Of a DNA stretch of 64,000 nt, positions 35,690 to 61,760 are shown one piece after another; positions within the stretch are counted from its first letter, which is position 1; the number at the start of each line of letters is the position of its first letter. The stretch lies in the NCBI GenBank assembly GCA_041738615.1, contig JBGSPL010000001.1:226164-290163 (forward strand). The letters are read 5' to 3'. A program made the position numbers and the translations under genes. Origin of the DNA: Patescibacteria group bacterium. GTDB lineage: Bacteria; Patescibacteriota; CPR2; UBA1875; CAIMLA01. The notes under the pieces are model-generated. The model was not told the origin of the DNA, ran no database searches, and was given only the letters and a program-made list of their open reading frames with translations.

Positions 35690-36316
35690 CTACTCTGTCT
35701 CTTCCGCTGTCACGGCTAGTCGCTTCCAATCAGTTCCTAACGGCCAACAGGTTAGAAGGGTTAGATATTTCCCATCTTGATGACTGTTTACATACGCCGT
35801 ATCGGAGGCCTCTATTTCACGACTTTCGACTACATTATACGTATACTTATTGTTGTTTCGGTAAATGATGATGGGGTCAGCGACATTAAGCCTGTTTATG
35901 GTAGCAAAGATATTTGAATAATACCCAGGTACGATGCTGGAGCTATGCGCAGTCAATACCACGTTACCAACCGTGCCTACCTCTGCAGTGCCAGGATAGT
36001 GGTTAATCGCCCTATCTAGATTCGCATTCATGTCATCGATGGTCGTTGGGTACTCTATCTTGCCCACAACATCCAAAGATGGTATTTCCAGGCGATTTGG
36101 TTCGTTCTTCCACTTACTATTATCAAATTGCTGGATGTTCTTTGATGGATTAAATCCCAGGTTTCTCTCTAGCCCATCGTAGTTTATCGCTACCCACAGA
36201 CCCACCAAAACAAGGGTGACCATAGCGAGACTCAGGATTAGGTTTATCCAGCTGAATCGATACTTTGCCAGTTTGAGCTTTCTAAGAAAGCGTATTTTGT
36301 ACCTGCTTATGTCCAT
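35690..36316 (-). CDS. sortase family transpeptidase
   Basis: 208 aa. N-terminal TM anchor. Catalytic His (LTAHSS) and TLLTC Cys motif (LTLLTCWP). Confidence 0.8.
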   Translation of the reverse strand: MDISRYKIRFLRKLKLAKYRFSWINLILSLAMVTLVLVGLWVAINYDGLERNLGFNPSKNIQQFDNSKWKNEPNRLEIPSLDVVGKIEYPTTIDDMNANLDRAINHYPGTAEVGTVGNVVLTAHSSSIVPGYYSNIFATINRLNVADPIIIYRNNNKYTYNVVESREIEASDTAYVNSHQDGKYLTLLTCWPLGTDWKRLAVTAEETE

Positions 36317-36358
36317 GGAGCTATTATATCAAAATAGGCGCCAGTCGGCGCCTATTTA

Positions 36359-38599
36359 CTAACTTTCCCAAACCTTCTTTTTCCGAAAGATACGCCTACG
36401 ATTCATTACTACATAGCCAGAACCCGCCATCACTAGTAGGTAAAACAGGGCAGTGATACCAGTCTTCGGTAGAGAAGACAAGGGCGTTGAAGCTGAAGCT
36501 AGGCTAGCCACATTCGCTAGGTAAATACTGTTGTAACCTTCTGCGGAGACATCACCATATGCTAGCATGCCCTTTGAGAGATACAAATTGCCGGGTTGTG
36601 GTACGGTGGTGTTTAGGACGATGGTACCCAGAAGCGCATTGCCAGACAGGCTGAATATGTTGATCATCGAGTTACTAGCTGCCAGAGCTGCTGTAGGGCT
36701 AAAGAAATCAGCTATTTGATTCATGAACCCCCCATTGTAGCCCATCTCCTCTGGTATTTTATACTCGTCCCAGATAAGTGTATCACCTTCCAGTACTATA
36801 TTCATCGGCATATACCCTTCTTTAAGAGCAAGAGCTACTTCCCTGATTGCCCCTGTAGAAATAGTGTATATGTATATCTTGGTATCATCGTACCAGTACA
36901 CACTATCCCCCGATATTTCTGGTCTATGCTGATTACCACCCATACGGCCATATCTCGCGACTCCGGCCTTCATGGTGATCAATCTGGACTGGTCTAGATC
37001 ATAAAGCAAGAAATCGCCTGTTCCAGCTGTCACGTTATCCTCTCTAAAGGCAACGTACCTACCATCTGTGGATGTTACAGAAATGAAGTTTTCTGTAGTG
37101 TAGGGAAAGGGCGTTACCTGACCATCCGATATGCGATAAACACTAACCTCTTCGGAATTATCTAGGTTTATCTTTTCATATATAACCCTGTTCGCTCCAA
37201 CGCTTAGGCCAATGAACTTATCGTCTTTTGCTACCACGGTTCTTTGTCCAGTCTCGAGATTATATAGGGTTATACAACGATCGTCGTAGTTGTCTTGATC
37301 TGGGTTCTCTACAAGTTCTGTGTAGAGGATATATTTACTTTTATCCGTAGCGTAACCCATTGGTTGAGCGTAGCCGACTGCGGCTCCACTGATCTTCGTT
37401 TGCTGCTCAGTCTTCTTGTTATAAGCGTATATCTCATAGTATTCACCATTCCGCTTATCCTCCCAGACTACAAAGTCTCCGACCGTTTTGGCGTTTACGC
37501 GGTCTAGTGAACCAGTATTGAAGCCATAGATATTGGTCTGGCCACCTACTACTCTAGTCCAGAAGGAGTAGCCTTGCGCGAAGGTCACATGGTCGTTTGT
37601 GGAATCATTAACAGATGAGGAAACCAGTGTAGACACAATAGTTGGTGTGTTATTGGGGCCCCAGGCAAGATTAGGTGTCACTACGCGCACTCCACCCCCC
37701 AGCGTACCATCTGCATTCAATGTCTGTAGATAAGTTAACGCATCCGGGATGCTACTATTGTACTGATAACTAGGCAGAAATTCCCGGTTTCCAGTGGTTG
37801 TAATCTGCCGAATCTCATCTAGATTGAAGTTATAGTAGTAAATATCACCATTTCCAGTAGCATTACTTTCGTAGTAACCCATATATCCCACGCTTACAAA
37901 GCTCTGGACTTGAGTGGCTTTTTCTACTGGGTCGCCAGTCGTCTTATCGATAGCATACAACTTTTCATCTCTGATGTACTCGATATCCTGCCCGTTCGAG
38001 TTGTAATTAGCCTCGTAGACAACCGTATTACCGGCATCAATTACACTAGTGTTGTAATGATCGGTGACGTATTCGATTTTTACTAGATCAAACGCCTCGC
38101 CATTCGGCTGCGACACAACAACATCACAAAACATGGGATAATCAGAGTTCGCAGGATTTAGCTGATCCTCAGCCAAAACACAGAGCGGGTTACTATTACC
38201 CGTAGTAAAACTATAAAGATATATGTCATAACCTGTCGTAGAGTCTGTATATCGAGAGTAAATCACTCCGTAGAAAGAATTCACAGAATCGGAAACAAAC
38301 TTCATCGATTGAACGTCGCTACCTAGCAGCTCAGCTGGCGCCTCGGAATCTTGTATGTCGCGAACGTACATATCAGACTTATTTGTACCGTCATTATGAG
38401 CTAGGTAAACAAGTGCATTATTGTGGTATATAGGAGTATGCCCAGACTCTACGTCCTCTGCATATAACACCTCACCCGGCTTACCGGCGTAATATGGCAC
38501 TTCTTCAGATTTTACGGAGGTTTGCGCACGAACCAATAGCATTGGGATAAGGAATGCACCTAGGGCTAGAGTACTAATTACCTTTTTGTTTATCTTCAT
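36359..38599 (-). CDS. LPXTG-anchored surface protein with TolB/PD40-like beta-propeller repeats
   Basis: 746 aa. Signal peptide MKINKKVISTLALGAFLIPMLLVRAQT. Repeated DIYLY/GDIYYY/EIYAY/KIYIY blades. C-terminal LPKTG plus hydrophobic segment plus RRRIFRKKK. Confidence 0.8.
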   Translation of the reverse strand: MKINKKVISTLALGAFLIPMLLVRAQTSVKSEEVPYYAGKPGEVLYAEDVESGHTPIYHNNALVYLAHNDGTNKSDMYVRDIQDSEAPAELLGSDVQSMKFVSDSVNSFYGVIYSRYTDSTTGYDIYLYSFTTGNSNPLCVLAEDQLNPANSDYPMFCDVVVSQPNGEAFDLVKIEYVTDHYNTSVIDAGNTVVYEANYNSNGQDIEYIRDEKLYAIDKTTGDPVEKATQVQSFVSVGYMGYYESNATGNGDIYYYNFNLDEIRQITTTGNREFLPSYQYNSSIPDALTYLQTLNADGTLGGGVRVVTPNLAWGPNNTPTIVSTLVSSSVNDSTNDHVTFAQGYSFWTRVVGGQTNIYGFNTGSLDRVNAKTVGDFVVWEDKRNGEYYEIYAYNKKTEQQTKISGAAVGYAQPMGYATDKSKYILYTELVENPDQDNYDDRCITLYNLETGQRTVVAKDDKFIGLSVGANRVIYEKINLDNSEEVSVYRISDGQVTPFPYTTENFISVTSTDGRYVAFREDNVTAGTGDFLLYDLDQSRLITMKAGVARYGRMGGNQHRPEISGDSVYWYDDTKIYIYTISTGAIREVALALKEGYMPMNIVLEGDTLIWDEYKIPEEMGYNGGFMNQIADFFSPTAALAASNSMINIFSLSGNALLGTIVLNTTVPQPGNLYLSKGMLAYGDVSAEGYNSIYLANVASLASASTPLSSLPKTGITALFYLLVMAGSGYVVMNRRRIFRKKKVWES

Positions 38600-38778: not shown

Positions 38779-38788
38779 TTGATCATAA

Positions 38789-38904
<116 letters not shown>

Positions 38905-39030: not shown

Positions 39031-42076
<3,046 letters not shown>

Positions 42077-42507: not shown

Positions 42508-43239
42508 TTATGTGGAAATATTCATATCAGGATTTGTAACTGGATCATGTGAATTCTGAAGAAATTGAACAAACCTGTTACCTTTTTCGGTAAGGCTAAC
42601 ATTAAATCCATCATTAGCGATCAAATTAGAGCTTTGCAAGGCGTTAATGATGGCTATTCTTTCTGCGGCCTGGTTGTTAATCTCAGGAGGTAAATAAAAT
42701 GTAGCATAAAATTCTCGAAGAGAAGTATTACCTGAAAGGAACGATATTAAGGCACGCTTCGAATTCATCACCAGAAAACCATTTGCTAAATAGTAAAACT
42801 CATAACGTTCCACGTTGTTCGAACCACTAACGGCGACCGAACTTTCTGATACGCCTTCGGTTGTTCCAGCCTCAGTCTGGGTAATTGTACTTAAAGAATA
42901 CTGACGACCCGCCTTATCAACCCAAGTAAGTTTATTGGTATTTTTCAAAAAGTTTTCAATTGGCAAGGCAAATTTTGTTAGAATTATCAACATAATTGTA
43001 AAAAAGGATAGCGGCCAAGAGTTCATAACCACAATGAGTATCTCCTTGAACGATAACCATACCCGAGAATCTATACTTGTCAAAAAATCTAATATGTTCC
43101 TGCTAAACAGGAAGATAATAAACAAGAGAGTTATAGTAAATGCGGCTTTGTCTTTCATGGGTACTTTATACTCTAAATGATTAAAAATGTCTACCATGTT
43201 CCAAAAATATTCCGGACAAGTTTTTCTGCCGTGAAACAT
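42508..43239 (-). CDS. hypothetical membrane protein (AT-rich gene)
   Basis: 243-aa ORF, about 33% GC, two TM helices near the N-terminus. No motif recognised. Confidence 0.45.
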   Translation of the reverse strand: MFHGRKTCPEYFWNMVDIFNHLEYKVPMKDKAAFTITLLFIIFLFSRNILDFLTSIDSRVWLSFKEILIVVMNSWPLSFFTIMLIILTKFALPIENFLKNTNKLTWVDKAGRQYSLSTITQTEAGTTEGVSESSVAVSGSNNVERYEFYYLANGFLVMNSKRALISFLSGNTSLREFYATFYLPPEINNQAAERIAIINALQSSNLIANDGFNVSLTEKGNRFVQFLQNSHDPVTNPDMNIST

Positions 43240-43252
43240 TTTTGTTTCACAA
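43228..43252. repeat. 25-bp repeat copy 1 containing palindrome GTGAAACA-TTTT-TGTTTCAC
   Basis: GCCGTGAAACATTTTTGTTTCACAA, identical to 47695-47719. An extra GTTTCAC half-site follows at 43255-43261. Confidence 0.7.
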
Positions 43253-43352
43253 TTGTTTCACGCTACCAGGGTGTCAGCCACAATCTGTATTTTTTGCTAT
43301 CCATGCGGTATAATCACACTGTTTCTCACATATCTGCGACCTGGAGGTCATC

Positions 43353-43886
43353 ATGTACCAGAGACTTGTCCGTAGTTCGGACGTACCTATCACCGATGCG
43401 CAGAGGAAGTCGCTCGGCAACTGGGCCTTGGTCCGCTACTTCGGCTGGGGATTCGGACTCATGATCGTCCTGATACCCCTCAACTTCGTGGCCGTCCTCA
43501 TCAACCGGCTACTGGGACGAGCAATCCCTCCGAGCGGGGTTTGGTTCTACATCGGAATGATTCCATTCTGCCTGGTTTCGGCTCTCGTCGGCACCTACGC
43601 GCACTACCGCATCCGGCAGCTGCCGTGGTGGCGCGCACCCGAGCCAACTGAGACAGAGAAGGCGAGGGACACGTACCAAGACACGGCCGGTGACGTCTGG
43701 ATCGGGTTTGGTATCGCCTTCTTCGGTACAATCGCCGGTCTCTTCTCCGGCGTCTACTGGTTCTACCTCGCTATTCCTGCTGGAGCCGGCTGGAGCTGGC
43801 TTGTCTACAAGTCGGCCAAGGCGCAGTACCAGGAGTATCTGAGGTTGAAGCAGGAAGAACAACGGGTCCCCACTGCCGCTACGTAG
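43353..43886 (+). CDS. high-GC hypothetical membrane protein (4 TM)
   Basis: 177 aa, about 60% GC in a 45% GC context. SD GGAGGT 5 nt upstream. GC-rich hairpin plus T-run terminator at 43895-43960. Confidence 0.55.
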   Translation: MYQRLVRSSDVPITDAQRKSLGNWALVRYFGWGFGLMIVLIPLNFVAVLINRLLGRAIPPSGVWFYIGMIPFCLVSALVGTYAHYRIRQLPWWRAPEPTETEKARDTYQDTAGDVWIGFGIAFFGTIAGLFSGVYWFYLAIPAGAGWSWLVYKSAKAQYQEYLRLKQEEQRVPTAAT

Positions 43887-43991
43887 CGGTCAACGCGCCC
43901 AAGGCGCACGCAAGAGTACTACCGTACGACGGCGCTGCACTTTGGGCGCCTTTCGTTTTTGCCCTTACATAATCATGAGACTCCATGACCT

Positions 43992-44039
43992 TGAAATATT
44001 TACTCCCCCACATACGTATTACAATTACAGGCGTATAAT
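43992..44039 (+). promoter_or_regulatory. promoter region of ECF sigma gene: ECF-type TGAAAT-N17-CGTA plus TATAAT 6 nt before the ATG
   Basis: TGAAAT at 43992-43997 and ACGTAT about 16-17 nt downstream resemble the SigW/SigE-type TGAAAC-N16-CGTA. TATAAT at 44034-44039 leaves only 6 nt before ATG 44046 (leaderless). Confidence 0.4.
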
Positions 44040-44045
44040 CTATTT

Positions 44046-44615
44046 ATGAGCAAAGAAAAAGAAACTGATGAACAACTAGCGGTAATGCTCCAAAAAGGCA
44101 ATAAAGATGCCTTTGGGCAACTTATCGACCGCTACGAACCCGCTCTCCTGCGCTATACTCACCGCCTACTTTCTGACCAAGATGCCGCTGAGGACGTCAC
44201 ACAAGAAACTTTCCTCAAGTCCTATAGAGACATCCAGGGTTTTGATCCAAATCGAAAGTTTAGCTCGTGGCTTTATCGTATAGCCCATAACCAAGCTATA
44301 GACGCTATCCGCAAAAGGAAAGGTACGGTAATACTAGAAGAGGCAGAGAGTATCGCCTCAGAAGAAGATATACACGACGATATCCAGAACAGACTAGACA
44401 AGAAGCATCTGAGAACCAAGCTAGATACCGCTATCGCCAAGATACCCACGAAGTACCGTGAAACGGTGATACTACGCTTCTATGAAGAGAAAGAATATGA
44501 CGAGATTGCCGAGATACTCCACCTTCCTATTGGTACCGTCGGAACATATATATCTAGAGCAAAAGCAGAACTGAGAAAACAATTAACTGAAATTAATATA
44601 GAGGATTACCTATGA
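44046..44615 (+). CDS. ECF (sigma-70 family, group 4) sigma factor
   Basis: 189 aa with region 2 (DVTQETFLKSYRDIQGF...SWLYRIAHNQAIDAIRKRK) and region 4 (REKEYDEIAEILHLPIGTVGTYISRAKAELR). Confidence 0.85.
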   Translation: MSKEKETDEQLAVMLQKGNKDAFGQLIDRYEPALLRYTHRLLSDQDAAEDVTQETFLKSYRDIQGFDPNRKFSSWLYRIAHNQAIDAIRKRKGTVILEEAESIASEEDIHDDIQNRLDKKHLRTKLDTAIAKIPTKYRETVILRFYEEKEYDEIAEILHLPIGTVGTYISRAKAELRKQLTEINIEDYL

Positions 44616-45103
44616 GCGAGCTAAAGAACAAACTTTTGAAAAAAATCGAGAGCGAAGACCTGAAGATGAGGTCACGTGGCTTTTTTGTCTTTACTCGGGC
44701 CCTTATCGAGATTGCGCTAGTAGCGATATTGGTAGCTACCATATATCTAGTAAACCTAGCGATCTATTTGCCCAAACGAGGACTAGGACCCATTCGACCG
44801 CAAGCATTCCGGATAAATATGTTGCTCGATATAGTACCTTGGCACTATCTGATCTTCGGAGCTATCGGACTAGGGGTTTCTTTTTGGCTGCTATACAGGT
44901 TCACCGGAACCTACAAGAAACACTATCTAGTAATGGTGGCTGTAGTATCAATACTAGTACTATTATCTGGGGCTCTACTCGCCTTCAGCAATCTGAATGA
45001 ACGATTCGAAAACAGACCACATATGCGCGGCCTCTACATGATGGACGATCCTAGGCTTGGACCTGGCAGAGGTATGGGACCAGGATTCAACAGATTGAAA
45101 TAA
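44612..45103 (+). CDS. putative membrane anti-sigma factor (translationally coupled to the ECF sigma)
   Basis: 163 aa. Start overlaps the sigma stop (ATGA). Two TM segments. C-terminus RGMGPGFNRLK. Confidence 0.55.
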   Translation: MSELKNKLLKKIESEDLKMRSRGFFVFTRALIEIALVAILVATIYLVNLAIYLPKRGLGPIRPQAFRINMLLDIVPWHYLIFGAIGLGVSFWLLYRFTGTYKKHYLVMVAVVSILVLLSGALLAFSNLNERFENRPHMRGLYMMDDPRLGPGRGMGPGFNRLK

Positions 45104-45169
45104 ATTCCATCGGCGCACCGTATTATATATAGAGGTGCACACTCTAAAGAAACTAATCAAGGAGAGACA

Positions 45170-45676
45170 ATGAATAAGAAACAAATAATCGCCGCAACAG
45201 CCCTAATAGCTGGAATCGGTCTAGCAGGAGCCTACGGCATCCAAACAGCAAAAGCTGCTACCGACACAAATAGCTTCCCACCGATGATTCAAAAAATGGT
45301 AGAGAAATTCAATCTAAACACAGACGAGGTTTCGAAATTTGTAAACGAAGATCGAGAAGCCAGACAAACAGAACGAGAAGCTGACTTTGAGAAGAAACTT
45401 GCTGATGCAGTGACTGCCGGCAAGATCACAGAAGCTCAAAAGACAGCTGTCCTCGCCAAGCACGACGAACTGCAAACGAAGAGAGAAGCTCTAAGAGACC
45501 AGAACAAGGAAGATAGAGAAGCTCATCGTACAGAGATGCAGGCCATACACACTGAGATGCAAGATTTCCTAAAAGCCCAAGGTATCGACGAATCAGTCTT
45601 GCCTACACCAAAAGGTCCACAAGGTGGTGGAATGGGAATGGGCGGCGGCATGCACCGCGGTTTCAACCGACAATAG
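45170..45676 (+). CDS. secreted LTXXQ-motif (CpxP/Spy/ZraP-like) protein with Gly/Met-rich C-terminal tail
   Basis: Signal peptide MNKKQIIAATALIAGIGLAGAYGIQTAKA. KITEAQKTAV is LTxxQ-like. Tail GGGMGMGGGMHRGFNRQ. Confidence 0.6.
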   Translation: MNKKQIIAATALIAGIGLAGAYGIQTAKAATDTNSFPPMIQKMVEKFNLNTDEVSKFVNEDREARQTEREADFEKKLADAVTAGKITEAQKTAVLAKHDELQTKREALRDQNKEDREAHRTEMQAIHTEMQDFLKAQGIDESVLPTPKGPQGGGMGMGGGMHRGFNRQ

Positions 45677-45692
45677 GAACTGAATATACTAA

Positions 45693-45725
45693 AGAGCTCT
45701 ACGGAGCTCTTTTTTTGTGGCGAGA
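45693..45725 (+). terminator. rho-independent terminator of the sigma module
   Basis: AAAGAGCUCUACGGAGCUCUUUUUUUG. Confidence 0.75.
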
Positions 45726-45858
45726 AATTATATCAAATCTACCCGATAGGCAGAAGTTTTTTGTTAACGAGCATTATATACAAAATGTGAAAAGCCCCGC
45801 AGGGCGTTTCAGTAACGAAACGTCCTTTGGGGCGCATTAGTTGGATACGGAACAGCCT

Positions 45859-46524
45859 TTACTGTGGCTGTTCTTCTATGACTGGTAACCTGGCAGGAAG
45901 ATCCGGATTTGCCTTAAAGAACAAGGAAAGCCAGATCGCGAATGAGACAATGACGAGGATGATAAAGATCATCCCCCAAATCATGTACAGTTTGCTGTTA
46001 CGCTCTTCCCTTCTCTCTCTCGCTGCCTCCAACCTCGCGCTTTTGGCCCGGGCTGCCTTTTCGGCTGGAGTGGAGTAGTGCCAATGGGGTTGATGTGAGA
46101 TTCCTCCGCTGTAGCTACCAGCGGGAGCCGAGCCCCCACTGGTGCCACCAGAAGGAACGTAGTCTCCTCCGTAATTCCCGTAGGAACCAGACGGAGAGTA
46201 GGTAGATCCTCCACCAGCAGCCGGACTAGACGAACCGTCGGGCGGTCTATCCAGACGAGCAGCCACAGAACCAGCCACCGAAACACCGTACTCGGTACCG
46301 CTTCGGCTATCCCATGGCATTTGAGCCACATACTCCGAGTGGCCACCGGGTGAGGTTACCGAAGTGTTGCCAGCGAAGTTGGTACTGACGCTAGCAACCT
46401 CTTTGCCAACACCCCCAAGTAATCCTGGTTCGTGCACGGAGACGCTGCCATCTATCTTCTCAATGCCAACGCTCGTGACGTTGCCGAAGAAATCCTTCGT
46501 TACGGTCTTATCTCCCCATGCCAT
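45859..46524 (-). CDS. high-GC hypothetical protein, Gly/Ser/Tyr-rich with C-terminal TM anchor
   Basis: Start at ATG 46524 (MAWGDK..., SD GGAGGTG 6 nt upstream). About 60% GC. Low-complexity GGSTYSPSGSYGNYGGDY. One TM near the C-terminus. Confidence 0.5.
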   Translation of the reverse strand: MAWGDKTVTKDFFGNVTSVGIEKIDGSVSVHEPGLLGGVGKEVASVSTNFAGNTSVTSPGGHSEYVAQMPWDSRSGTEYGVSVAGSVAARLDRPPDGSSSPAAGGGSTYSPSGSYGNYGGDYVPSGGTSGGSAPAGSYSGGISHQPHWHYSTPAEKAARAKSARLEAARERREERNSKLYMIWGMIFIILVIVSFAIWLSLFFKANPDLPARLPVIEEQPQ

Positions 46525-46735
46525 CGTGAGCACCTCCAACCTTCTTGTCCAAGGAACATATAATGATTGGCGTATTTATACCACGAAAAGGAGTAAATTG
46601 CAAGTCTACAAAAGGCCATTGATCTTACCACGGACAAGATTATTCTGTTCAAAAAGGAAAACTTGTGCTAGAATGCTCGCACGTAATGATGGTATGGCCA
46701 CAAGTGGCTGATTTGACAACTAGATTGGAGCTGGC

Positions 46736-47599
46736 ATGGACACTGAACTGCTAGACGTCACTGATTTCGAGCGCATCGGTGGTGGAAAGACCAAGGACAT
46801 CTTCCTCGACCCTTCGTTCCGAGGTTACGTTCTCATCCGAAGCCGCGACGACATCAGCGCCGGAGACGGCGCCCGCAAGGACACCATGACCGGCAAGGCC
46901 GAACTCGCCACGACGACGACCGTGAACAACTTCCGCTATCTCGACTCTTGCGGCATCTTCAACCACTACGTCGCTGGGGTCGTGGACCCGGTAACCTTCC
47001 GGGCTCTCGAGTGCACACCGATTCCGATCGAGTGCGTCGCGCGCCGGTATTCGGCAGGCGGCTCGTATCCCAAGCGCGTTCCCGGCATTCCCGTCGGCCA
47101 CCGCTACGACCACCCGGTCGTCGAGATGTTCTGGAAGCAGGACGTCGGCGAGTACACCGATCCGTTCATGGTCTTCGATGCCAAGAAGGGGTTCTTCGAG
47201 CTTCACCCGGCCCAGGAGCCGACTACGGCAATGAACGTCCTGTCGACAATCGCAGCGAACGAGATCCCTGGCTTCGAGAAGTTCGCTGACCCACTCCAAC
47301 TGATCGCGACCATGGAGATGATGACCGACAGAGCCTTCTGCGCCCTCGAGAGGGCCTACAGGATGGTCGCTCTCACGGTCGTCGACATGAAGATCGAGTT
47401 CGGACTCGACAACGCGGGCGACGTCACGATCATCGACGTCATCGACGCCGACTCGTGGCGCGCCTGGGTCGACGGCGACCCGGAGAAGGCAGTCGACAAG
47501 CAGTTCTTCCGGGATCACCCGGACGAGCCGGCCGACACCTCGCTCCCCGCCTATCGCTACGTCGCCGAGAAATCCGCACAGATTCTCGAGCTGCCCTAG
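46736..47599 (+). CDS. purC: phosphoribosylaminoimidazole-succinocarboxamide (SAICAR) synthase, long form (high-GC gene)
   Basis: 287 aa with GGGKTKDIF, MTGKAELATTTTVNNFRYL, IPIECVARRYSAGGS and VVDMKIEFGLDNAGDVTIIDVIDADSWRAW. About 62% GC. Native-looking AT-rich promoter (TGCTAGAAT) upstream. Confidence 0.85.
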   Translation: MDTELLDVTDFERIGGGKTKDIFLDPSFRGYVLIRSRDDISAGDGARKDTMTGKAELATTTTVNNFRYLDSCGIFNHYVAGVVDPVTFRALECTPIPIECVARRYSAGGSYPKRVPGIPVGHRYDHPVVEMFWKQDVGEYTDPFMVFDAKKGFFELHPAQEPTTAMNVLSTIAANEIPGFEKFADPLQLIATMEMMTDRAFCALERAYRMVALTVVDMKIEFGLDNAGDVTIIDVIDADSWRAWVDGDPEKAVDKQFFRDHPDEPADTSLPAYRYVAEKSAQILELP

Positions 47600-47622
47600 C
47601 GGCATCAAGCAGCCATCACTAC

Positions 47623-47656
47623 GAAGGGGCGGTTTCCAATTGGAAACCGCCCCTTC
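47623..47656. terminator. perfect 14-bp stem terminator between convergent genes
   Basis: AAGGGGCGGTTTCC-AATT-GGAAACCGCCCCTT, followed by CTGCTTTT. Confidence 0.8.
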
Positions 47657-47694
47657 TGCTTTTATAGAGATAATAGCCTCGAATACATATAATG

Positions 47695-47719
47695 GCCGTG
47701 AAACATTTTTGTTTCACAA
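47695..47719. repeat. 25-bp repeat copy 2 (same as 43228-43252)
   Basis: GCCGTGAAACATTTTTGTTTCACAA. Lies between two terminators in a convergent intergenic region. Confidence 0.7.
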
Positions 47720-47783
47720 AAGCAAAGAGCCCACGAATTCAGATGAATCGTGGGCCCCCGCTTTGACTTGAATCTGGGTGCTG

Positions 47784-48186
47784 CTACGCGCTGAGCAGCA
47801 TCCTTGCGTCCGGGCTGTTCTGGGTGAGTATCTCGAGGACAGAGGTCGCGAGCATCGGGTCGTCGGTGACTACAGTGACGGTACCGTCGCGGCACAGAAA
47901 GAGATCGGCTACCTTGCCGTAGATCCTGAGATTCGCGTACTCGGTTGGGCCGACGTGAACCATACGCGCCTCGTACTCGGAGTCGATGACGTAGCCCTCG
48001 GCCTCCCAGTGATAGTCGATCCCGGCGACGTTGAATGCGTCCGCGATGGCATCCATGTAGCGTCGCCCGCGAAGGTTAACGTAAGCCCTAGCCCTGCCGC
48101 TAAGGAGTCCCATCAAACGACGGGGACCCCTCCCAACACTGAGCTCGAAGCCAGGTGGCAGACCATCCGTGATCGGGAAATGCATG
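47784..48186 (-). CDS. high-GC hypothetical protein
   Basis: 134 aa from ATG 48186 (MHFPITDGLPPGFE..., SD GAGGAGAG). GC3 about 75% on this strand. Hairpin plus U-rich terminator at 47724-47760. The track ORF extends upstream into AT-rich DNA. Confidence 0.5.
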
Positions 48187-48353
48187 GTAGCTCTCCTCTC
48201 ATGTGGCGAACTGGATTCCAGAATGTCAAAGCGAACCTTGAGCAAGGTGGTGACCACCTTGCTTGGGAACGTAATATCATAATACTTTTCAGCGCAAATG
48301 TCAATCCACACCCAGGTGTGCTCTGGTGATTTGCCAACCGAAGTTGGGGAGAA

Positions 48354-49934
48354 CTACTTCTTCTTGGAGCCCTTCCTAGGACGCTTGGCTTTGTGTTCCG
48401 CAACCTGCTTCTTGAGCTTGTTCTCTGTTCGTCTATCCGATACCCACTTGAGGCCCCACAGGGCAGCAACACCGGCGAGTGATGATAAGCCGATAGCTAG
48501 AGCACCGTTTAGCGACGAGTCCGCGGTTTTCTCTGCACCTGTGAACTTTGGATCTACTAAGTTGATTGAAGCGATTTTCGACTTGTCAGACAAAAGCTTT
48601 TGCGCGAGCTCGGTAATCTGCTCTGGATAATCTCGACCAATTTCTGGCAACTGCAAGAGTGCAGATAGCTCTGCGTCCACCCCTTCACCAAGGTCAATCA
48701 GCCCAAACTTCTCTGGCTCTGCCGCGATAGCAGCTACGAGCTCTTTAGCAATCCATTGGGCGCCCCCTCGGTAAGAAAACTCGGAATATTCCGAGGATCC
48801 CCAATCTAAAATCCGCGACAGTGAAGCCGACTTTTTCTCGGTAAACATGAGCTCCCCGAGCATACCCATAGTTTCGTCACGGACACCCTCGGCAGATTGG
48901 GCCTGCATAAGCTCCAGGGCGCTCGTGGCAGCCGCTACCTGGTCCAACCCTAGCGTCTCCTCGTTCTGATAAAACAAGTGCCCCATTTCGTGTGCCACAA
49001 CTCTGGTAGGCACCTCTACATCAAAATCTTGAATATAACTCTCGGAAACAAATGAACCGAGCTGCATAGCTAGCACTTGTCTTTCCTCTACTGTCTTTCC
49101 TGCCTGCATTATCTTTTCCGCTCGACTCTGAATATCGAGTAAGCCCTCTGACCCTATTCTCTCCTTGGTCTCCTGTATTTGTTGCTTCTTCTCGGCGGCC
49201 TCGGTGTCAGCACCTTCTTTGTAGATAAGGACCGACTTGTATCTAGTTTGCCCTTCTAGTGGGGCCGTTGTCTTCACGCTGCTGATGCCCTCGCCATCGA
49301 GTACTAGTGGGCCGATATTCACAAGCGGAACCATCCTATCGCCGACTGCTGTCTCCACTACCGTATGCTTTGCCGACTCTACACTAAAGAAATTTGTGAT
49401 AACCCCAAAATAATCCTTGCCGGTTTCATCTGCGGCGATGGCCAAGACAGACTTGGCAAAGATGCCATACTGAGCCATTGCCTCTGGGAATCTTCGCTGC
49501 ATCACTTGTTTGTACTGTTCGGGACTAAAAGGAGTTTCTTCGTGCAAGACTTGTGCGACTGCCTGGTAAGCATCCTCGTGTGCTGCCGTTTGTTCGGCTG
49601 TAGGGGTCACAAATCCTGCGACTGTCTCCTGGCTATCGGCCATACCATCTGCAGCCACTAGCCTCTGGTATTCTTCTATCGCTGCTATCGCACTTTTTGC
49701 TTCTGCTGTTATCGGCTGCTGTTCGACCGCAAAGTCGATTGGCTTCATGGTTTCTTTGATATTCTCTACAATAACTTCATTTCCGCGAAACTCTGTCGAT
49801 GCCTCGGCACTTGTCGGTTTCTCTAGAGCCTCGGCAGCTACTGCCGCCGCTGTGCCGGCAACCCCCTGTAAAAACTGCCTCCTGGTTATTCCTCGTTCAT
49901 CTTCTGCATGATTCTCGGCCATGGTGCGCTCCAC
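48354..49934 (-). CDS. Tat-signal zinc metallopeptidase-like protein (HEMGH) with C-terminal TM anchor
   Basis: N-terminal RRQFLQGVAGTAAAVAA twin-arginine motif. VVAHEMGHLFYQ HExxH. C-terminal hydrophobic helix plus KKQVAEHKAKRPRKGSKKK. Confidence 0.6.
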   Translation of the reverse strand: MERTMAENHAEDERGITRRQFLQGVAGTAAAVAAEALEKPTSAEASTEFRGNEVIVENIKETMKPIDFAVEQQPITAEAKSAIAAIEEYQRLVAADGMADSQETVAGFVTPTAEQTAAHEDAYQAVAQVLHEETPFSPEQYKQVMQRRFPEAMAQYGIFAKSVLAIAADETGKDYFGVITNFFSVESAKHTVVETAVGDRMVPLVNIGPLVLDGEGISSVKTTAPLEGQTRYKSVLIYKEGADTEAAEKKQQIQETKERIGSEGLLDIQSRAEKIMQAGKTVEERQVLAMQLGSFVSESYIQDFDVEVPTRVVAHEMGHLFYQNEETLGLDQVAAATSALELMQAQSAEGVRDETMGMLGELMFTEKKSASLSRILDWGSSEYSEFSYRGGAQWIAKELVAAIAAEPEKFGLIDLGEGVDAELSALLQLPEIGRDYPEQITELAQKLLSDKSKIASINLVDPKFTGAEKTADSSLNGALAIGLSSLAGVAALWGLKWVSDRRTENKLKKQVAEHKAKRPRKGSKKK

Positions 49935-50055
49935 TTATAGCAATATTTTACCCTTCTATATGTAATATTCAAAGCTGTTTGGACAAACTTCTATAAAGCA
50001 AAGTGCCCGCCTCCCACGGGCTACTCTGAAGTAGTGGTGGAAGTACGGGCACGTA

Positions 50056-50667
50056 CTAGGCGGGATCCTTCTGGAAGGTGAGCTGTTTCTCTTGCCCATT
50101 CCAGATTCTCACCCAGTTCTCGCGGTGGAGCCAGATGACCATAGCCCCCATCGCGAATGCAATCACTGCTGGCCAGGTCTCCAGGGTGTAGAGGTAGACC
50201 AATATCCAGAAAAGGCCAGCGATGGCGGTAGAGCCGATGGCAACGACCCTCGTGAGCGCGACTGCGAGCACGAAGATCACGAGCAGTACTAGAGCCACCG
50301 GCCACATCTGGTAGAAGAGCGCTCCAGCTCCGGGTGCGATCCCCTTGCCGCCCTTCCAGTGGAGGTAGAACGGGAAGGTGTGACCAGCGATGACGGACAT
50401 CATGATCAAGAGCATGATGGAAGCTGATGGGTGTTTCAGGACCGTGGCAGCGAGCCACATAGCCAGGATACCCTTGCCGGCGTCCAGTAGAAGGACGGCT
50501 AGCGCCGGCTTCCACCCCAGTACCCGATACACGTTGGTAGCGCCGAGATTACCGGAGCCAGACTCTCTGATATCGGTGCGGTAGAACACCTTACCGATTA
50601 CGAGAGCCCAAGAGATGGTACCGATGGCATAGGCCAGTGCGGCACATCCCACGTAGCTGAAAACCAC
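50056..50667 (-). CDS. plsY: acyl-phosphate:glycerol-3-phosphate acyltransferase PlsY (high-GC gene)
   Basis: GSGNLGATNVYRVLG and LLLDAGKG motifs. Start placed at GTG 50667 (SD AAGGAGGTG 6 nt upstream), because the longer track ORF would overlap fabK. Confidence 0.8.
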   Translation of the reverse strand: MVFSYVGCAALAYAIGTISWALVIGKVFYRTDIRESGSGNLGATNVYRVLGWKPALAVLLLDAGKGILAMWLAATVLKHPSASIMLLIMMSVIAGHTFPFYLHWKGGKGIAPGAGALFYQMWPVALVLLVIFVLAVALTRVVAIGSTAIAGLFWILVYLYTLETWPAVIAFAMGAMVIWLHRENWVRIWNGQEKQLTFQKDPA

Positions 50668-50707
50668 TTGCCCACCTCCTTGGGTGGTAGGAACGATGGT
50701 GCGGACC

Positions 50708-51676
50708 CTACTCGCCTTCGGCAAGAGCTTGGTTCGCGCCTTCGTAGATGCGGTCGACGATGGCAGCTGCAGGCTCGATAGCGTGGATGTGACAGGCCAC
50801 CTGGCCACACATCACACTACCCCACACCGTGTCACCCTGCTTCATCGCTTTCTCGAGGGCGCCGTCACCGAGGGCAGCCTTGCCATCCTCATCTCCGGCA
50901 GCCTCCAGCTCTGCGAAACGTTCCGAGAGTGCGTTCACGAGGACGCGCACGGGTCGATGGCCGATAGCCTTGGGCGTGTATGTGACTGTAGTACAGTCGC
51001 CCTGTGCCGCAACGATCATCTGCTTGACCTCATCTGCGATCTCGGTCTCCTCGGCTACGAGGAAGGCCGTCCCGACCTGAACGCCTTCGGCGCCCGCGAG
51101 GATTGCCTTCGCTGCACTCTGTCCGTCGTAGATACCGCCCGCGGCGATAACCGGGATACGGCCAGCGACAAGGGCGATGATGTCCGACAGGATGTCGAAC
51201 AACCCGTGATTGCCGATGTGACCGCCGGATTCGAGCCCCTCGACGATGAGAGCATCGACCCCAAGCTTCAGCCAGTAGTTGGCCCACTTTACCTCAGCGA
51301 CCAACGGGATCACCTTGACCCCAGCGCTCTGAAGCAAGGATACCTTGTCCTGACGAAAGACGCCGGCGCCAATCGTGACCGCAGTGACTCCACCTTCCTC
51401 GATGAGGACATCAATGAGAGCCTGCGCTTTGACTGCGTCGACTGCCATGATGTTCACCCCAAAGGGCTTGTCGGTAAGACCCTTGATCCTGCGGATTTCA
51501 TCCCGCAGTTCCTCGGGGGTCATTCGACCCGTGGCGATGATGCCAAAGCCGCCAGCATTGCTGACGGCTGCCGCAAGGGTGGCCGTAGAAACACAAGCCA
51601 TCCCTCCCTGTAGCACTGCCTTCGCTATTCCGAGCAACTCGCAGATGCGAGCGCCCCATTCGCGTATTCGTGCCAT
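50708..51676 (-). CDS. fabK: enoyl-ACP reductase FabK-type (NPD/nitronate monooxygenase family flavoprotein, high-GC gene)
   Basis: 322 aa. LLGIAKAVLQGGMACVSTATLAAAVSNAGGFGII, GVNIM, IAAGGIYDGQSAAKAILAGAEGVQVGTAFL. SD GAGGAGAGGAG. Confidence 0.75.
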   Translation of the reverse strand: MARIREWGARICELLGIAKAVLQGGMACVSTATLAAAVSNAGGFGIIATGRMTPEELRDEIRRIKGLTDKPFGVNIMAVDAVKAQALIDVLIEEGGVTAVTIGAGVFRQDKVSLLQSAGVKVIPLVAEVKWANYWLKLGVDALIVEGLESGGHIGNHGLFDILSDIIALVAGRIPVIAAGGIYDGQSAAKAILAGAEGVQVGTAFLVAEETEIADEVKQMIVAAQGDCTTVTYTPKAIGHRPVRVLVNALSERFAELEAAGDEDGKAALGDGALEKAMKQGDTVWGSVMCGQVACHIHAIEPAAAIVDRIYEGANQALAEGE

Positions 51677-51877
51677 GCCGAACTCCTCTCCTCGAGAGCC
51701 AATGGTCTCTAAACTGTCAATGAACCCCCAAGTAATCTATCGTTGGGAATTGGCTGGATTATACCCTAAAACCAAGCTTTATTCAACGAAAATATCGCAG
51801 AAACGCAAACACTCCGCCCCGCAGGCAGTACAACGGAGTGTTATACGCCCGCAAAGCGGAGTGGTAATAGAGGGCAG

Positions 51878-52645
51878 CTATTGAGCAGCCCAGACACGGT
51901 CACGGAGTGTCCGTGCAGCAGTGGGGATGTAGTTCATAGTGATGACATCGGCAGGAAGCTCCAATCCCTCAAAGCAACCTACGCTGCACGCCCGGAGCGC
52001 CATGACACCGCTGAAACCGTCGGCGCTGAGCGCTTTCAGGACATCCGCCCCCTTGATCCCGTCGTCGAGGCAACACTCGGTGAGGACGCCGGCCAGATGG
52101 CAGTCGTGGTGCGTGATGCGCGCTTCCTGAAGACTCGATACGGCGTAGACCGACAGGTCTCCCAGGTATCCGCGATACGCCTCCAGAGCTTCTGCTCGGG
52201 CAACAACCATGACGGCGGGCTTCACCAGCAACTCAAAGACCCCCGGGTGAGCGGTCTTCCAATCACGCCAACGGGTGTACTGGCCCTCCATGCTATCGAG
52301 GAGCTCGAGCAGGGAGAGAGCACTGTGTTCCGCCGGATTCGGGAAGTAGGCAGCGGGGTTCTCCCAGGTGTACTTCTTGTAACACCAGTCGCCCTCCCCC
52401 CTCTTCCAGAAGGTTACCGTGTTGGCGCAGGGCCCACCGATGAAAGTGCCCTGAGGAGTAACCACCTCCATCTCCTTGGCAGTGCTGCCCCAGGCGGGTC
52501 CCTGGCAGATGTACTCCACGAAGGAGCGAATCTGCCTTGCCTCTTGGGCAGTCACTTCAACGGAGCCAGGAAGCAGCGTAGCGATGTAGTCCGGTCTTCC
52601 AGGATCCTTCACAGGGATCCCCAGCTTTACGAGGTGCTCGTGCAT
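51878..52645 (-). CDS. high-GC Cys-rich hypothetical protein
   Basis: 255 aa. GC3 highest on this strand in sampled codons. Hairpin AACACTCCG...CGGAGTGTT downstream. A competing 281-aa plus-strand ORF is judged less likely. Confidence 0.4.
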   Translation of the reverse strand: MHEHLVKLGIPVKDPGRPDYIATLLPGSVEVTAQEARQIRSFVEYICQGPAWGSTAKEMEVVTPQGTFIGGPCANTVTFWKRGEGDWCYKKYTWENPAAYFPNPAEHSALSLLELLDSMEGQYTRWRDWKTAHPGVFELLVKPAVMVVARAEALEAYRGYLGDLSVYAVSSLQEARITHHDCHLAGVLTECCLDDGIKGADVLKALSADGFSGVMALRACSVGCFEGLELPADVITMNYIPTAARTLRDRVWAAQ

Positions 52646-52839
52646 ATTTCTAGCCTTTCTCTCGGCGTAAACTGCAAGTCGACGATATTATACGACGAAA
52701 TACCGCTTTCTACAAGCATAAGATGACACATCGGCGGGATAAGCCTAGTAATGGCAATAACGCAAAGGCTTCACTTTTTTCCTTAATTGGGCTATAATCC
52801 AAGCGGTTCTTTTGTATACATGCCGACACTGGGGGCGCT

Positions 52840-53238
52840 ATGAGCGAGAAACCTTTGACCCGTAGCGACATCGTCAGGGAAGGAAGGTGGCTGCTGATCC
52901 TCATCTGGATCTGGCAAGATGAGGCAGACATCGACAGGTACTTCGAGCTGGCTCGAATTCTCTTCGGGATGATCTTTGTGGAGCACAACACGGGCAAGCT
53001 TGCCGACCCACTGCTCTGTCGCCCGAGTTGGGCAAACCTGCCTCTTGCCAAGGCCGTCTTCGTACTCGCCAAGGCACAAGGATTCCAACGGGGCGAAGGT
53101 AGCCAGCTGGCTACCAAACTCTGCCACGCCAAACATACCCACAACCACTACCCCGTCATCAATCTCATGGTGATACAGGGAGTGCACCCCCGGGTGGCGC
53201 CTCGCCACGTTCCCCATCTCATCGCCTTGGTCGCCTGA
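52840..53238 (+). CDS. high-GC hypothetical protein
   Basis: 132 aa. GC3 about 70% versus GC1 about 55% on plus. Perfect TATAAT at 52786-52791 in the AT-rich upstream region. Competing minus ORFs rejected. Confidence 0.4.
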   Translation: MSEKPLTRSDIVREGRWLLILIWIWQDEADIDRYFELARILFGMIFVEHNTGKLADPLLCRPSWANLPLAKAVFVLAKAQGFQRGEGSQLATKLCHAKHTHNHYPVINLMVIQGVHPRVAPRHVPHLIALVA

Positions 53239-53336
53239 GAACCGCAGCGCCACTGGCGCACAGTCTCCCGCAAAGGAAGCGCCGTGCACCACTGGCGCTT
53301 CATCATTTGTCCAAAATTATGATAAAATATAGCCAT

Positions 53337-53816
53337 ATGAAAACTCTAATCACCTATGCCAGTAAATATGGCTCCACCAAGAAGTGCGCTCAGATGGTAG
53401 CTGCAGGCCTTATCAGTGAAGCTGATCTTGTAGACCTAAAGGAGTCCATCATAGTCGACCTAGATAAATACGACACGGTTGTCATTGGAGGCTCAGTAAT
53501 GATGGGTGTAATTCAGCGTGAGGTCCGCGAGTTTCTAAACAAATACGAAACCAGGCTGCTAGACAAAAAGCTGGGACTCTTTATTTGCAATATGCGGACC
53601 GATGAGGATGCGCAAGCTGAGATCGAGGTTGCCTACCCCAAGATCCTAAGGGATAAAGCGACGGCTGTAGAATACTTTGGCGGCGAACTAAACATGGAAA
53701 AACTGAGTAGATTTGATAAATTTATCATAAAATCAGTTACTAAGGAACGCGAGAATCTCTCTGCCCTACTTGAGCCAAACATAGACCGTTTTATCGATAA
53801 GATGAACCAAACCTAA
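53337..53816 (+). CDS. flavodoxin-like protein
   Basis: MKTLITYASKYGSTKKCAQMVA...VVIGGSVMMG flavodoxin fold. Start at ATG 53337. Confidence 0.7.
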   Translation: MKTLITYASKYGSTKKCAQMVAAGLISEADLVDLKESIIVDLDKYDTVVIGGSVMMGVIQREVREFLNKYETRLLDKKLGLFICNMRTDEDAQAEIEVAYPKILRDKATAVEYFGGELNMEKLSRFDKFIIKSVTKERENLSALLEPNIDRFIDKMNQT

Positions 53817-53884
53817 GAAATTTCCCGACAAAATAACATCCTAAAATTCTATAGAATATTAGGATGTTATTTTACGATAAGTAC

Positions 53885-59341: not shown

Positions 59342-59593
59342 GTGCGCAAGAGGGGTAGGGGATGTCGTATGGCGCGAAGGGCATGCACTTGCACTACAGG
59401 GGAGGCCTGTGACGTGTGCGACCCGCACGGTTCGATCCGGAGGGAGATTCGCGAACGCAAGGTTCGCATCGCCGACATGCTGGCTGGTTTCTACGGAACC
59501 GACACTCATGAGGTGATTCAGGCTTTCGGTCATCAGCACAGCATCTTCCACGACGAGTCCGCCGTAACCCAGATGGTCACCGCCGGAAACTAG
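59342..59593 (+). CDS. high-GC small hypothetical protein (83 aa)
   Basis: Arg-rich N-terminus, Cys cluster CTCTTGEACDVCD. About 62% GC. Confidence 0.4.
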   Translation: MRKRGRGCRMARRACTCTTGEACDVCDPHGSIRREIRERKVRIADMLAGFYGTDTHEVIQAFGHQHSIFHDESAVTQMVTAGN

Positions 59594-59604
59594 GGAGGTC
59601 GGCT

Positions 59605-59769
59605 ATGTGCCAGCTCGGTATGTGCCTACCCCTTCTTGGGGTCTATGACGTCACAAAGGACGGGGACCGCGAACCGCAGGCTCAGATCGACGAAAGCGGA
59701 GAGTGGGCCACCCAAGCAGCTCCCACAACCGCAGACGACATGGAAGTCGACCTCGGCGACGAAGAATGA
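59605..59769 (+). CDS. high-GC small acidic ORF (54 aa)
   Basis: SD GGGAGGTCGGCT immediately upstream. MCQLGMCLPLLGVYDVTKDGDREPQAQIDESGEW... Not in the ORF track (<60 aa). Confidence 0.35.
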   Translation: MCQLGMCLPLLGVYDVTKDGDREPQAQIDESGEWATQAAPTTADDMEVDLGDEE

Positions 59770-59781
59770 GGTGATACTTCC

Positions 59782-59970
59782 ATGGCAAGGAAGAAGAAAC
59801 ACCACCTGCTCGTAACGCCGACGAAGGCTGTCTGCAGCTGTTGCGGCTCCCGACTCACTCGGCACTCAAGAGAGTGTCCCAAGTGCGGTCCGCTCCGCGG
59901 ATGGCGCTGGGCCGGCAAGAGCGATCCTCCGAAGATCGGAAATCCACTGCATTTCCTTGGCCGGGCGTAA
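59782..59970 (+). CDS. high-GC small zinc-ribbon protein (62 aa)
   Basis: CSCCGSRLTRHSRECPKCGP (CxxC...CxxC). Lys-rich N-terminus. Confidence 0.45.
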   Translation: MARKKKHHLLVTPTKAVCSCCGSRLTRHSRECPKCGPLRGWRWAGKSDPPKIGNPLHFLGRA

Positions 59971-60005
59971 CCTTTCGCCAGTCCAAGAAGACAAGTCACA
60001 CATGC

Positions 60006-60047
60006 GAAGGCCGCGACCCGTTAGGGTTCGCGGCCTTCCGCTTTTAT
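60006..60047 (+). terminator. strong GC-rich terminator after the zinc-ribbon ORF
   Basis: GAAGGCCGCGACCC-GTTA-GGGTTCGCGGCCTTC, 13 of 14 bp paired, followed by CGCTTTTATC. Confidence 0.7.
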
Positions 60048-60144
60048 CAATTATGTATCGTTTATCAATATTATGAATGGGGCCGCAAGCGCGCCCCCAT
60101 CCTTGATGGTTATGCGCTTGCGGCCAGGAGTCGTACTGTGGCTG

Positions 60145-60585
60145 CTAGGGGTGAGATGAATTGACGATATCAACCACCTCCGAAGCTCCCCACAGCAGCA
60201 ATTCCTGAAATGCGGGGTCCATGATGCCAATCGATTGCCAGTACTTCACGATATCGAGATACTCGCCGAAGTAGTCCAGGATGAGTCGATGAAACTCATC
60301 CAAAAGCCCAGCCACTTCCATGCCATGATCCAATACGGCCTCGCCGTTTAGGATATGGCACATAGTGACTGCCGCCTGCCGAGAATCCAAACCGCTAGGT
60401 AGCGGCATGCGTAACGGCACCGGATGCTGCTTGATGACGGCCCATTTGCCTTCGCTGACCTCTTGGGGAACATACTGAGCGTCGGCGTTGCCCGTCTCTA
60501 TCAGGCTGCGAAGCTTCTTCGCAAACCTCTCTAGCTCGATCCTCCTGAAGAGTTCTCTTTCTTCGCCAGCCACATCTAACACCAC
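60145..60585 (-). CDS. hypothetical protein (moderately high GC)
   Basis: 146-aa ORF. 12-bp perfect inverted repeat GGCCGCAAGCGC...GCGCTTGCGGCC at 60083-60127 downstream. Confidence 0.45.
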   Translation of the reverse strand: MVLDVAGEERELFRRIELERFAKKLRSLIETGNADAQYVPQEVSEGKWAVIKQHPVPLRMPLPSGLDSRQAAVTMCHILNGEAVLDHGMEVAGLLDEFHRLILDYFGEYLDIVKYWQSIGIMDPAFQELLLWGASEVVDIVNSSHP

Positions 60586-60679
60586 CTATCAATGTACGGG
60601 CCACCGCAGTGGCGTGTCTCCTAGCTGGCATCCTACCCTCAAACGAAACATCTGTCAACCCTAATGGGTAACTTTTAGG

Positions 60680-60796
60680 CTAGACCACTTCGTCCTTTGT
60701 TTTACGGTGTAGTTCCACTTCCTCGTAGTCCTTTTCCATATATATAGCCAATATAGTTGTAAGAATAATCCCAATTCCAATGTATAAAATATCCAT
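60680..60796 (-). CDS. candidate 38-aa single-TM peptide
   Basis: MDILYIGIGIILTTILAIYMEKDYEEVELHRKTKDEVV. SD GAGGTG 4 nt upstream. Confidence 0.3.
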   Translation of the reverse strand: MDILYIGIGIILTTILAIYMEKDYEEVELHRKTKDEVV

Positions 60797-60915
60797 GTGC
60801 ACCTCGATTATCAAAATAATCCAATTTGGTCATATAGTGGGCAATAGCGACAATAATTACCTCATCGCCGCTATGCCCTATACTTGATTTCCGTCGTTTT
60901 CTTTCTCTTGCGCTT

Positions 60916-61080
60916 TTAGTATTCTTGCTGAACCGAGCGGATAACGTTACTCATAAGTCGGCTACATGCCTCCAGCTCCCCGGCTACATGAAAGTGACGA
61001 TGATCATCCATTATATTTTTTGCGTCCAAGATATCAAGCTGCGCCTGATCAAGTATTTCAATTAGTCTATTTTTACTCAT
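60916..61080 (-). CDS. small ORF B (54 aa), tandem paralog of ORF A
   Basis: MSKNRLIEILDQAQLDILDAKNIMDDHRHFHVAGELEACSRLMSNVIRSVQQEY. RBS context AAGGGGGAATACTATGAGT is nearly identical to that of ORF A. Confidence 0.45.
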   Translation of the reverse strand: MSKNRLIEILDQAQLDILDAKNIMDDHRHFHVAGELEACSRLMSNVIRSVQQEY

Positions 61081-61091
61081 AGTATTCCCCC

Positions 61092-61738: not shown

Positions 61739-61760
61739 CCGGCCCCTTGGGGCCGGGCAG
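61739..61760. terminator. GC-rich hairpin downstream of the M23 peptidase gene
   Basis: GCCCGGCCCC-TTGG-GGCCGGGC. No U-tract. Confidence 0.4.

Follow-up and report, generated by a model that had tools for sequence, protein, structure and literature searches.

A divergent PAICS-like SAICAR synthetase gene of foreign composition in a single-gene cassette of a Patescibacteria genome

The described SAICAR synthetases (PurC) that best match the protein analysed here are those of animals, in which the enzyme is part of PAICS (human 2H31/6YB8, Bombyx 4JA0) and is fused to AIR carboxylase (PF00731). Bacterial proteins of a PAICS-like type, either PurC or PurC-PurE, are found in Verrucomicrobia, Chloroflexi, Parcubacteria and Saccharibacteria MAGs. 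Other known forms are the short PurC (E. coli 2GQR, S. pneumoniae 4FE2, M. jannaschii 2YZL; TIGR00081) and the long PurC of actinobacteria and fungi (M. abscessus 3R9R/6YVQ, yeast Ade1 1A48/2CNQ). Cyanophages and other viruses also carry a stand-alone purC on a mobile genome, as an auxiliary metabolic gene. In E. coli, purC forms a single-gene operon. Near-complete genomes of Saccharibacteria (CPR) are reported to hold 6 of the 12 purine enzymes, and incomplete nucleotide synthesis is typical of CPR genomes in general (PMC7786006).

The purC gene described here lies on the forward strand at 46736-47599 of the window, by which we mean the whole 64-kb stretch of DNA that was analysed, and encodes a stand-alone, PAICS-like SAICAR synthetase of 287 aa with an ATG start. 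A Pfam scan of this ORF gave a match to PF01259 (SAICAR_synt) with an E value of 4.6e-39 and 135 bits, against a gathering cut-off of 20, which spans residues 16-262 of the protein and positions 4-219 of the 233 in the profile. The match is far above chance, and the frame runs from ATG to stop with no frameshift. This confirms the ORF as a real and intact SAICAR synthetase gene, and the claim of the earlier note that a complete PurC with all signature motifs is present was borne out on both counts. The AlphaFold2 model of the protein, with a 29-sequence alignment as input, has a mean pLDDT of 93.4 and a pTM of 0.90, and on searching it against the PDB with Foldseek every one of the best 38 matches is a SAICAR synthetase (E 1e-13 to 1e-23). 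It may be added that an ORF of 285 aa runs antisense to purC (46751-47608), which is the usual artefact of a GC-rich gene.

On comparing the protein with all PDB chains by phmmer, the best scores went to insect PAICS (2.3e-36) and human PAICS (1.7e-32), followed by short archaeal and bacterial PurC (2e-19 to 4e-11), and the long PurC of M. abscessus reached only 1.3e-4. The fold gave the same order, with human PAICS (6yb8_A) at Foldseek rank 1 (E 1.8e-23, 31% identity) and the M. abscessus and yeast long forms at ranks 27 to 38 with 15-20% identity. Thus the label of a long actinobacterial-type enzyme, given in the earlier note, failed on both comparisons, and the long actinobacterial or fungal type of PurC is ruled out; it is in fact the most distant PurC class from our protein, although superfamily and reaction are the same and the lengths are similar. 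A product of 287 aa from a high-GC gene might still suggest a long-type actinobacterial PurC, received for example from a high-GC actinobacterial host. We regard this as very improbable, since the insertions of the long PurC are unlike those seen here, the extra length of our protein lies in a segment (residues 139-194) that is common to it and to the PAICS-like bacterial PurC, and the nearest genomic matches carry mostly the labels of other phyla, a single one (37% identity) being labelled Bifidobacteriaceae.

By sequence and fold together, the closest kin of the protein are therefore the SAICARs domain of animal PAICS and the PAICS-like bacterial PurC and PurC-PurE. With the animal enzymes it shares the DxIDxDSWRxW motif, and differs from them in being bacterial, in having a longer stretch between residues 139 and 194, and in standing alone. 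No PF00731 domain was found in the ORF by Pfam, which returned PF01259 alone; the reading frame stops after residue 287, with a terminator downstream. The protein is thus of the PAICS SAICARs sequence type (DVIDxDSWRxW, KDD...DP) and is not a bifunctional PAICS fusion. The bacterial relatives align with it end to end, with the same subfamily architecture and motifs and 28 invariant alignment columns, although their identity to it is only 34-44%. Short PurC proteins share its catalytic residues and its fold (TM about 0.73-0.76 on the query), but their sequence matches are far weaker than those of PAICS and our protein is about 50 residues longer.

The active site can be followed residue by residue. 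The motifs present are G17-K-T-K20, S41-A-G-D-G45, E99/R103/S110/R114, D217-x-K219-x-E221, D234...D239-S-W-R242 and K255...R259. The key residues of E. coli PurC are K11, K13, R94, S100, D175, D191, R199, R215 and E179, which correspond to K18, K20, R103, S110, D217, D234, R242, R259 and E221 here, so that each of them has its counterpart. For human PAICS, the residues used in modelling the SAICAR synthetase site are Gly16, Lys17, Thr18 and Lys19 for ATP, and Thr40, Ala41, Gly42, Asn43, Glu97, Val99, Phe129, Lys131, Asp133, Asp137, Met190, Lys191, Glu193, Asp207, Asp212, Ser213, Trp214, Arg215, Lys228 and Arg232 for SAICAR (PMC9376930). Placing these on our protein through the phmmer alignment with the PDB chain gave G17, K18, T19 and K20 for the ATP site, and S41, A42, G43, D44, E99, V101, F132, K134, D136, D142, M218, K219, E221, D234, D239, S240, W241, R242, K255 and R259 for the SAICAR site. 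As many as 22 of the 24 are identical to the human residues. The two changes (human numbering) are the conservative T40 to S, and N43 to D, which is the consensus of the bacterial homologues (AGDG). The Mg2+ residues E97, D137, E193 and D207 (again human numbering) are all identical. The site is therefore intact with no disabling substitution, and as the CAIR/SAICAR, aspartate, ATP and Mg residues are all conserved there is no sign of a changed substrate. Judged by its sequence, the enzyme looks functional.

Yet the protein is a divergent one. It scores under the trusted cut-offs of all three NCBIfam equivalog models (TIGR00081, 76 against 189.9 bits; NF010568, 43 against 251 bits; NF009251, 33 against 371 bits), which makes it a divergent member of the subfamily; the low scores reflect the coverage of the models and are no evidence of a loss of function. 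Searching 1.84 billion cluster representatives with HMMER returned 1337 relatives, the best of which, besides the query itself, is 44% identical. Many of these are stand-alone proteins of 270-290 aa and many others are PurC-PurE fusions of 420-480 aa. In a collection of 5.8 billion proteins only two close PurC were found, namely the window's own (P0001, from an NCBI contig of 293 kb) and one other (P0002) with 84% amino acid identity. The nearest loci among GTDB species representatives (tblastn) are 35-42% identical and are labelled Saccharibacteria, Parcubacteria, other Patescibacteria, Verrucomicrobia (Chthoniobacter), Chloroflexi and some doubtfully labelled MAGs, including 'Rickettsiales'. 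A neighbour-joining tree of 211 trimmed homologues placed our PurC and P0002 together on a long branch, for which no stable sister group emerged. Neither this tree nor the search of the 1.84 billion representatives allowed a donor of purC to be named, the next-best homologues being at most 44% identical. The sub-threshold scores, the long orphan branch and the low identity to anything else all count against reading the gene as a canonical SAICAR synthetase, which nevertheless is the reading we prefer.

A phage origin of the gene was also considered and rejected. The PurC of GenBank phages and IMG/VR are at most 35% identical to ours, viral purC in general (27-35%) being no nearer than the cellular homologues, and the ORFs around our gene have no PHROGs matches. 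Among the PAICS-like bacterial homologues (80 loci, L005-L084), recovered with fused and unfused members by a genome scan for the pattern DV[IV]D[NA]DSW, roughly half are PurC-PurE fusions of 420-480 aa with the domain order of animal PAICS, in Verrucomicrobia and some CPR. A metagenomic protein of 733 aa (P0027) is a PurD-PurC fusion.

The composition of the gene is that of foreign DNA. Its GC content is 61.8% (0.618) and its GC3 83.7% (0.837), whereas in a core set of 33 ORFs at 1-38.6 kb of the window the means are 0.472 (sd 0.022) and 0.493 (sd 0.048). This makes it an outlier with z values of 6.5 for GC and 7.2 for GC3, and the earlier description of a high-GC gene stands. It may be noted that the 80 homologues in other genomes have a GC within about +/-0.06 of that of their own genome. 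As the homologues track their genomes in this way, the offset of +0.15 in the window is a real sign of foreign origin, and sets our gene apart from the PAICS-like bacterial purC, which fits its own genome. Other high-GC outliers (56-61% GC, GC3 up to 0.75, with a genome at 47%) lie at 43353-43886, 50056-53292, 59342-60585 and 61775-62281, and include plsY (G3P acyltransferase), an NMO/FabK-like flavoenzyme and an M23 peptidase. These outlier genes suggest repeated imports from high-GC donors.

The host, as judged from its protein sequences, is a member of the Patescibacteria/CPR. Named relatives of the HisRS and Ddl of the window, at 60-66% identity, are 'Patescibacteria group bacterium', 'candidate division WS5', Nanosyncoccaceae, Levybacteria and similar, and other relatives of the two proteins are much nearer (74-94%). 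The contigs that carry several related HisRS measure 0.58-0.85 Mb, in keeping with the small genomes of this group. The closest known relative (GCA_964501135.1, here L119) is 98.8% identical in 23S, 93% in Ddl and 94% in HisRS.

Within this genome purC lies in an island of 11.3 kb (42513-53831) between the 23S rRNA gene (39031-42074, reverse strand; the 5S rRNA gene is at 38788-38903) and a conserved gene of 88 aa. Also in the island are the high-GC genes at 43353-43886, 50056-50808 (plsY), 50708-51676 (NMO family), 51881-52726 and 52792-53292. In L119 there is no purC, and only 3.4 kb of unrelated ORFs lies between the 23S gene and the 88-aa gene. A third genome (L001) has a third set of genes at the same island, with purC among them. 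As the three gene sets differ between the same two anchors, the island is hypervariable. Absence from the nearest relative shows that purC is dispensable, a point against the canonical reading, and the distribution of the cassette departs from the species tree, which fits either lateral spread among kin or an ancestral presence followed by loss. No PHROGs matches were obtained among the ORFs of the island, and a defence-island context was rejected for want of meaningful PADLOC matches.

Several other features of this region may be recorded. Directly upstream of the 23S gene is an ORF of 243 aa (42508-43239, reverse strand) whose GC of 36% is the minimum of the window; it matches nothing in Pfam or PHROGs and gives only a weak PADLOC winged-helix match (E 2.8e-4). 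Three segments of the window are absent or replaced in L119, namely 42513-53831, 35690-38599 (a sortase and a block with a 746-aa secreted protein) and about 60100-63400 (a block with an M23 peptidase and a rhodanese/anti-sigma-like protein). Gene content turns over fast around conserved anchors. The 23S match spans 3044 nt on a model of 2925 positions, which implies about 120 nt of extra sequence (insertions) in the gene. The usual site of tRNA-Ala(UGC) is the spacer between 16S and 23S. Here this tRNA gene (63612-63687, reverse strand) is 21.5 kb upstream of 23S on the same strand, with ddl, mur and other protein genes intervening. On looking for the 3′ end of a 16S rRNA gene none was found in the 64-kb window, and the L119 contig ends at the place equivalent to the window end. 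It may be that the rRNA operon is split and that 16S lies just past position 64000.

The orthologue of the gene, which encodes P0002, is present in four independent JGI assemblies (L001-L004) with a CDS identical in all four. In L001 it keeps the landmarks of the window, lying between 23S/5S and the group of ddl, a Mur ligase and an alpha/beta hydrolase. With 58.6% GC and a GC3 of 75% it is again an outlier, the genome there having about 42% GC. These observations bear on the reading that a high-GC fragment, from contamination or a chimeric assembly, was misjoined into a CPR contig. Abrupt GC shifts, which the window does show, would agree with a misjoin. But the flanks of the cassette are AT-rich and continuous with CPR sequence, and because all four independent assemblies show the same type of junction, with the cassette between the same CPR landmarks (23S/5S, ddl), an artefact of this kind is hardly credible.

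The direct neighbours of purC differ fully between the two genomes, being an HD-domain protein and a 138-aa ORF in L001, and a Gly/Ser-rich membrane protein and ORFs with no assigned family in the window. DNA similarity around the gene is limited to 46666-47672, which is exactly one transcription unit. Read from the sequence, purC is a monocistronic, self-sufficient cassette about 1 kb long. Its upstream edge is a predicted extended -10 box on the forward strand, TGCTAGAAT at 46666-46674 (TGCTATAAT in the L001 alignment), which was passed over by the consensus promoter scanner because it has no -35 box. The 196-nt spacer upstream of purC has a GC of 40.8%, in agreement with the AT-rich promoter region that had been claimed for it. 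A conserved 5′ leader (46678-46735, aligned with 9941-10000 of L001) reaches up to the coding start, with a Shine-Dalgarno GGAG at 46727-46730, five nt upstream of the ATG. Downstream, a terminator scan found an intrinsic terminator on the same strand at 47623-47666 (10889-10932 in L001), whose hairpin (47623-47656) has a perfect 15-bp stem with 10 G-C pairs and a 4-nt loop and is followed by the T-tract TGCTTTTATA.

On comparing these elements between the window and L001, the hairpin is identical in 33 of 34 bases, the sole change being in the loop, and within the leader core (46678-46726) a single substitution and an indel of 2 nt separate the two genomes. Leader and terminator are about 93-98% identical. 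The CDS is 82% identical in nucleotides overall and 67% at third positions, so that the non-coding parts of the cassette are more conserved than its coding part. A riboswitch or other structured leader was rejected, as no Rfam match was obtained at E<=10 and the leader folds no better than its shuffles (z +2.2 and -0.55). Also rejected was a short upstream ORF (MMVWP...) in the leader, whose frame is broken by the 2-nt indel in L001 and which is therefore not conserved. There is no second copy of a 19-mer of the leader (46683-46701) in the 64-kb window with up to 3 mismatches allowed, and no exact match of a 23-mer (46708-46730) in the JGI metagenome contig collection. The leader may be an operator or a site of translational control.

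For the coding sequence, dN between the window and L001 is 0.10 and dS 0.68, and the dN/dS of 0.15 indicates purifying selection. Four-fold degenerate sites of purC are 59% identical, where 35% would be expected from third-position composition, whereas those of the flanking ddl, mur, hydrolase and U32 peptidase genes are saturated at 28-34% (pS at least 0.75). Therefore either purC diverged later than the host genomes or its synonymous sites are constrained. It was also seen that over codons 121-160 the synonymous codon is unchanged in 31 of 35 cases, the figure for the whole CDS being 70% (p about 0.008, uncorrected for multiple tests). This is no more than suggestive of mosaic recombination, or of a constraint acting locally, within the gene.

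These results are also the ones to be set against the view that purC is a functionless passenger, that is, foreign DNA newly arrived in a recombination hot-spot, of no use to the cell and bound to be lost. The hypervariable island, the absence from L119, the unameliorated GC3 of 84% and the lack of partner genes in the DNA sampled would all agree with that view. But a passenger would not be expected to stay intact in two lineages over a dS of about 0.68 with a dN/dS of 0.15 and with no frameshift or stop, nor to keep a promoter, leader, Shine-Dalgarno and terminator better than its CDS, and we consider it quite unlikely that the gene is one.

To place the gene in a pathway, every ORF of the window with at least 70 aa was scanned against Pfam. 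The genes recognised are housekeeping ones as expected of a small genome (glmS, nrdD/G/R, ftsZ/A, map, adk, ybeY, hisS, recJ, secDF, priA, def, fmt, infB, rbfA, rpsA, ddl, a Mur ligase and a sortase). No second purine-biosynthesis family was found by Pfam in the 64-kb window (GlmS and Fmt are not PurF or PurN), and no pur partner gene is present in 21 kb of L001 or in 15 kb of L119. The statement that purC has no neighbouring pur genes accordingly holds within the 64 kb, and the lack of a partner in these three regions counts against a pathway role. However, on inspecting 12 CPR loci with PurC homologues (+/-6.5 kb), we found five ORFs for a PurB-type lyase, four for PurE and two for PurH. This reveals that the usual CPR setting of the gene is a late-pathway set (AIR to CAIR to SAICAR to AICAR to IMP). 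Our purC differs from the PAICS-like bacterial genes in this respect too, since those often adjoin purB, purE or purH. With a solitary purC in E. coli as well, to call an isolated purC metabolically odd, as had been done, is overstated. Partial purine pathways are also known in CPR (PMC7786006).

It could be that purC is a true orphan, in a genome with no other de novo purine genes, and serves a non-canonical role such as the use of CAIR or AIR derivatives from a host or partner, the production of SAICAR as a signal, or the ligation of aspartate to a different carboxylate. Such a role would agree with the lack of any pur partner in about 100 kb sampled from the lineage and with the typically incomplete nucleotide synthesis of CPR (PMC7786006), while the dN/dS of 0.15 and the highly conserved leader indicate that purC matters where it is present. 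But the CAIR/SAICAR, aspartate, ATP and Mg residues are all conserved, which argues against a new chemistry, CPR relatives adjoin purB, purE or purH, the sampled share of the genome is less than about 10-20%, and no conserved neighbour that could be a new partner is common to the window and L001. On balance we think an orphan role unlikely, and the moonlighting and salvage of a host intermediate proposed in the earlier note are speculation. A bolder form of the idea would be a mobile, self-regulated purC cassette moving among ultra-small Patescibacteria that otherwise lack de novo purine synthesis, which processes a CAIR or AIR derivative of the host or partner or makes SAICAR for another use, with the almost unchanged 49-nt leader as a new cis-regulatory element controlling it; we would give this little credence.

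The explanation that we prefer, and hold to be probable, is that of a laterally acquired, intact and expressed cassette for a canonical SAICAR synthetase of the PAICS-like subfamily in a CPR genome. On this explanation purC would be transcribed from the predicted extended -10 promoter, and its product would convert CAIR, L-aspartate and ATP to SAICAR, ADP and Pi. PurC would presumably work with the late-pathway partners PurE, PurB and PurH encoded elsewhere in the genome, as in other CPR. In the simplest reading, the cassette supplies or replaces step 7 of a partial purine pathway, and it would have spread, or been kept patchily, among related CPR lineages and been held there by purifying selection.

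The enzyme family, its PAICS-like bacterial subfamily, the partial purine pathways of CPR and lateral gene gain in CPR are already known. What is new is a very divergent PurC, a mobile-looking cassette of a single gene and an oddly conserved leader, which is a small regulatory puzzle. For the family, it means that annotation by equivalog HMMs will under-call the PAICS-like PurC subfamily. If the genome should prove to be without purE, purB and purH, an orphan SAICAR synthetase kept by selection would point to an exchange of phosphorylated purine intermediates with a partner, or a use of SAICAR outside the pathway. For the organism, purC is a clean case of a single metabolic gene gained laterally, in a hypervariable island beside an rRNA gene, by a reduced genome.
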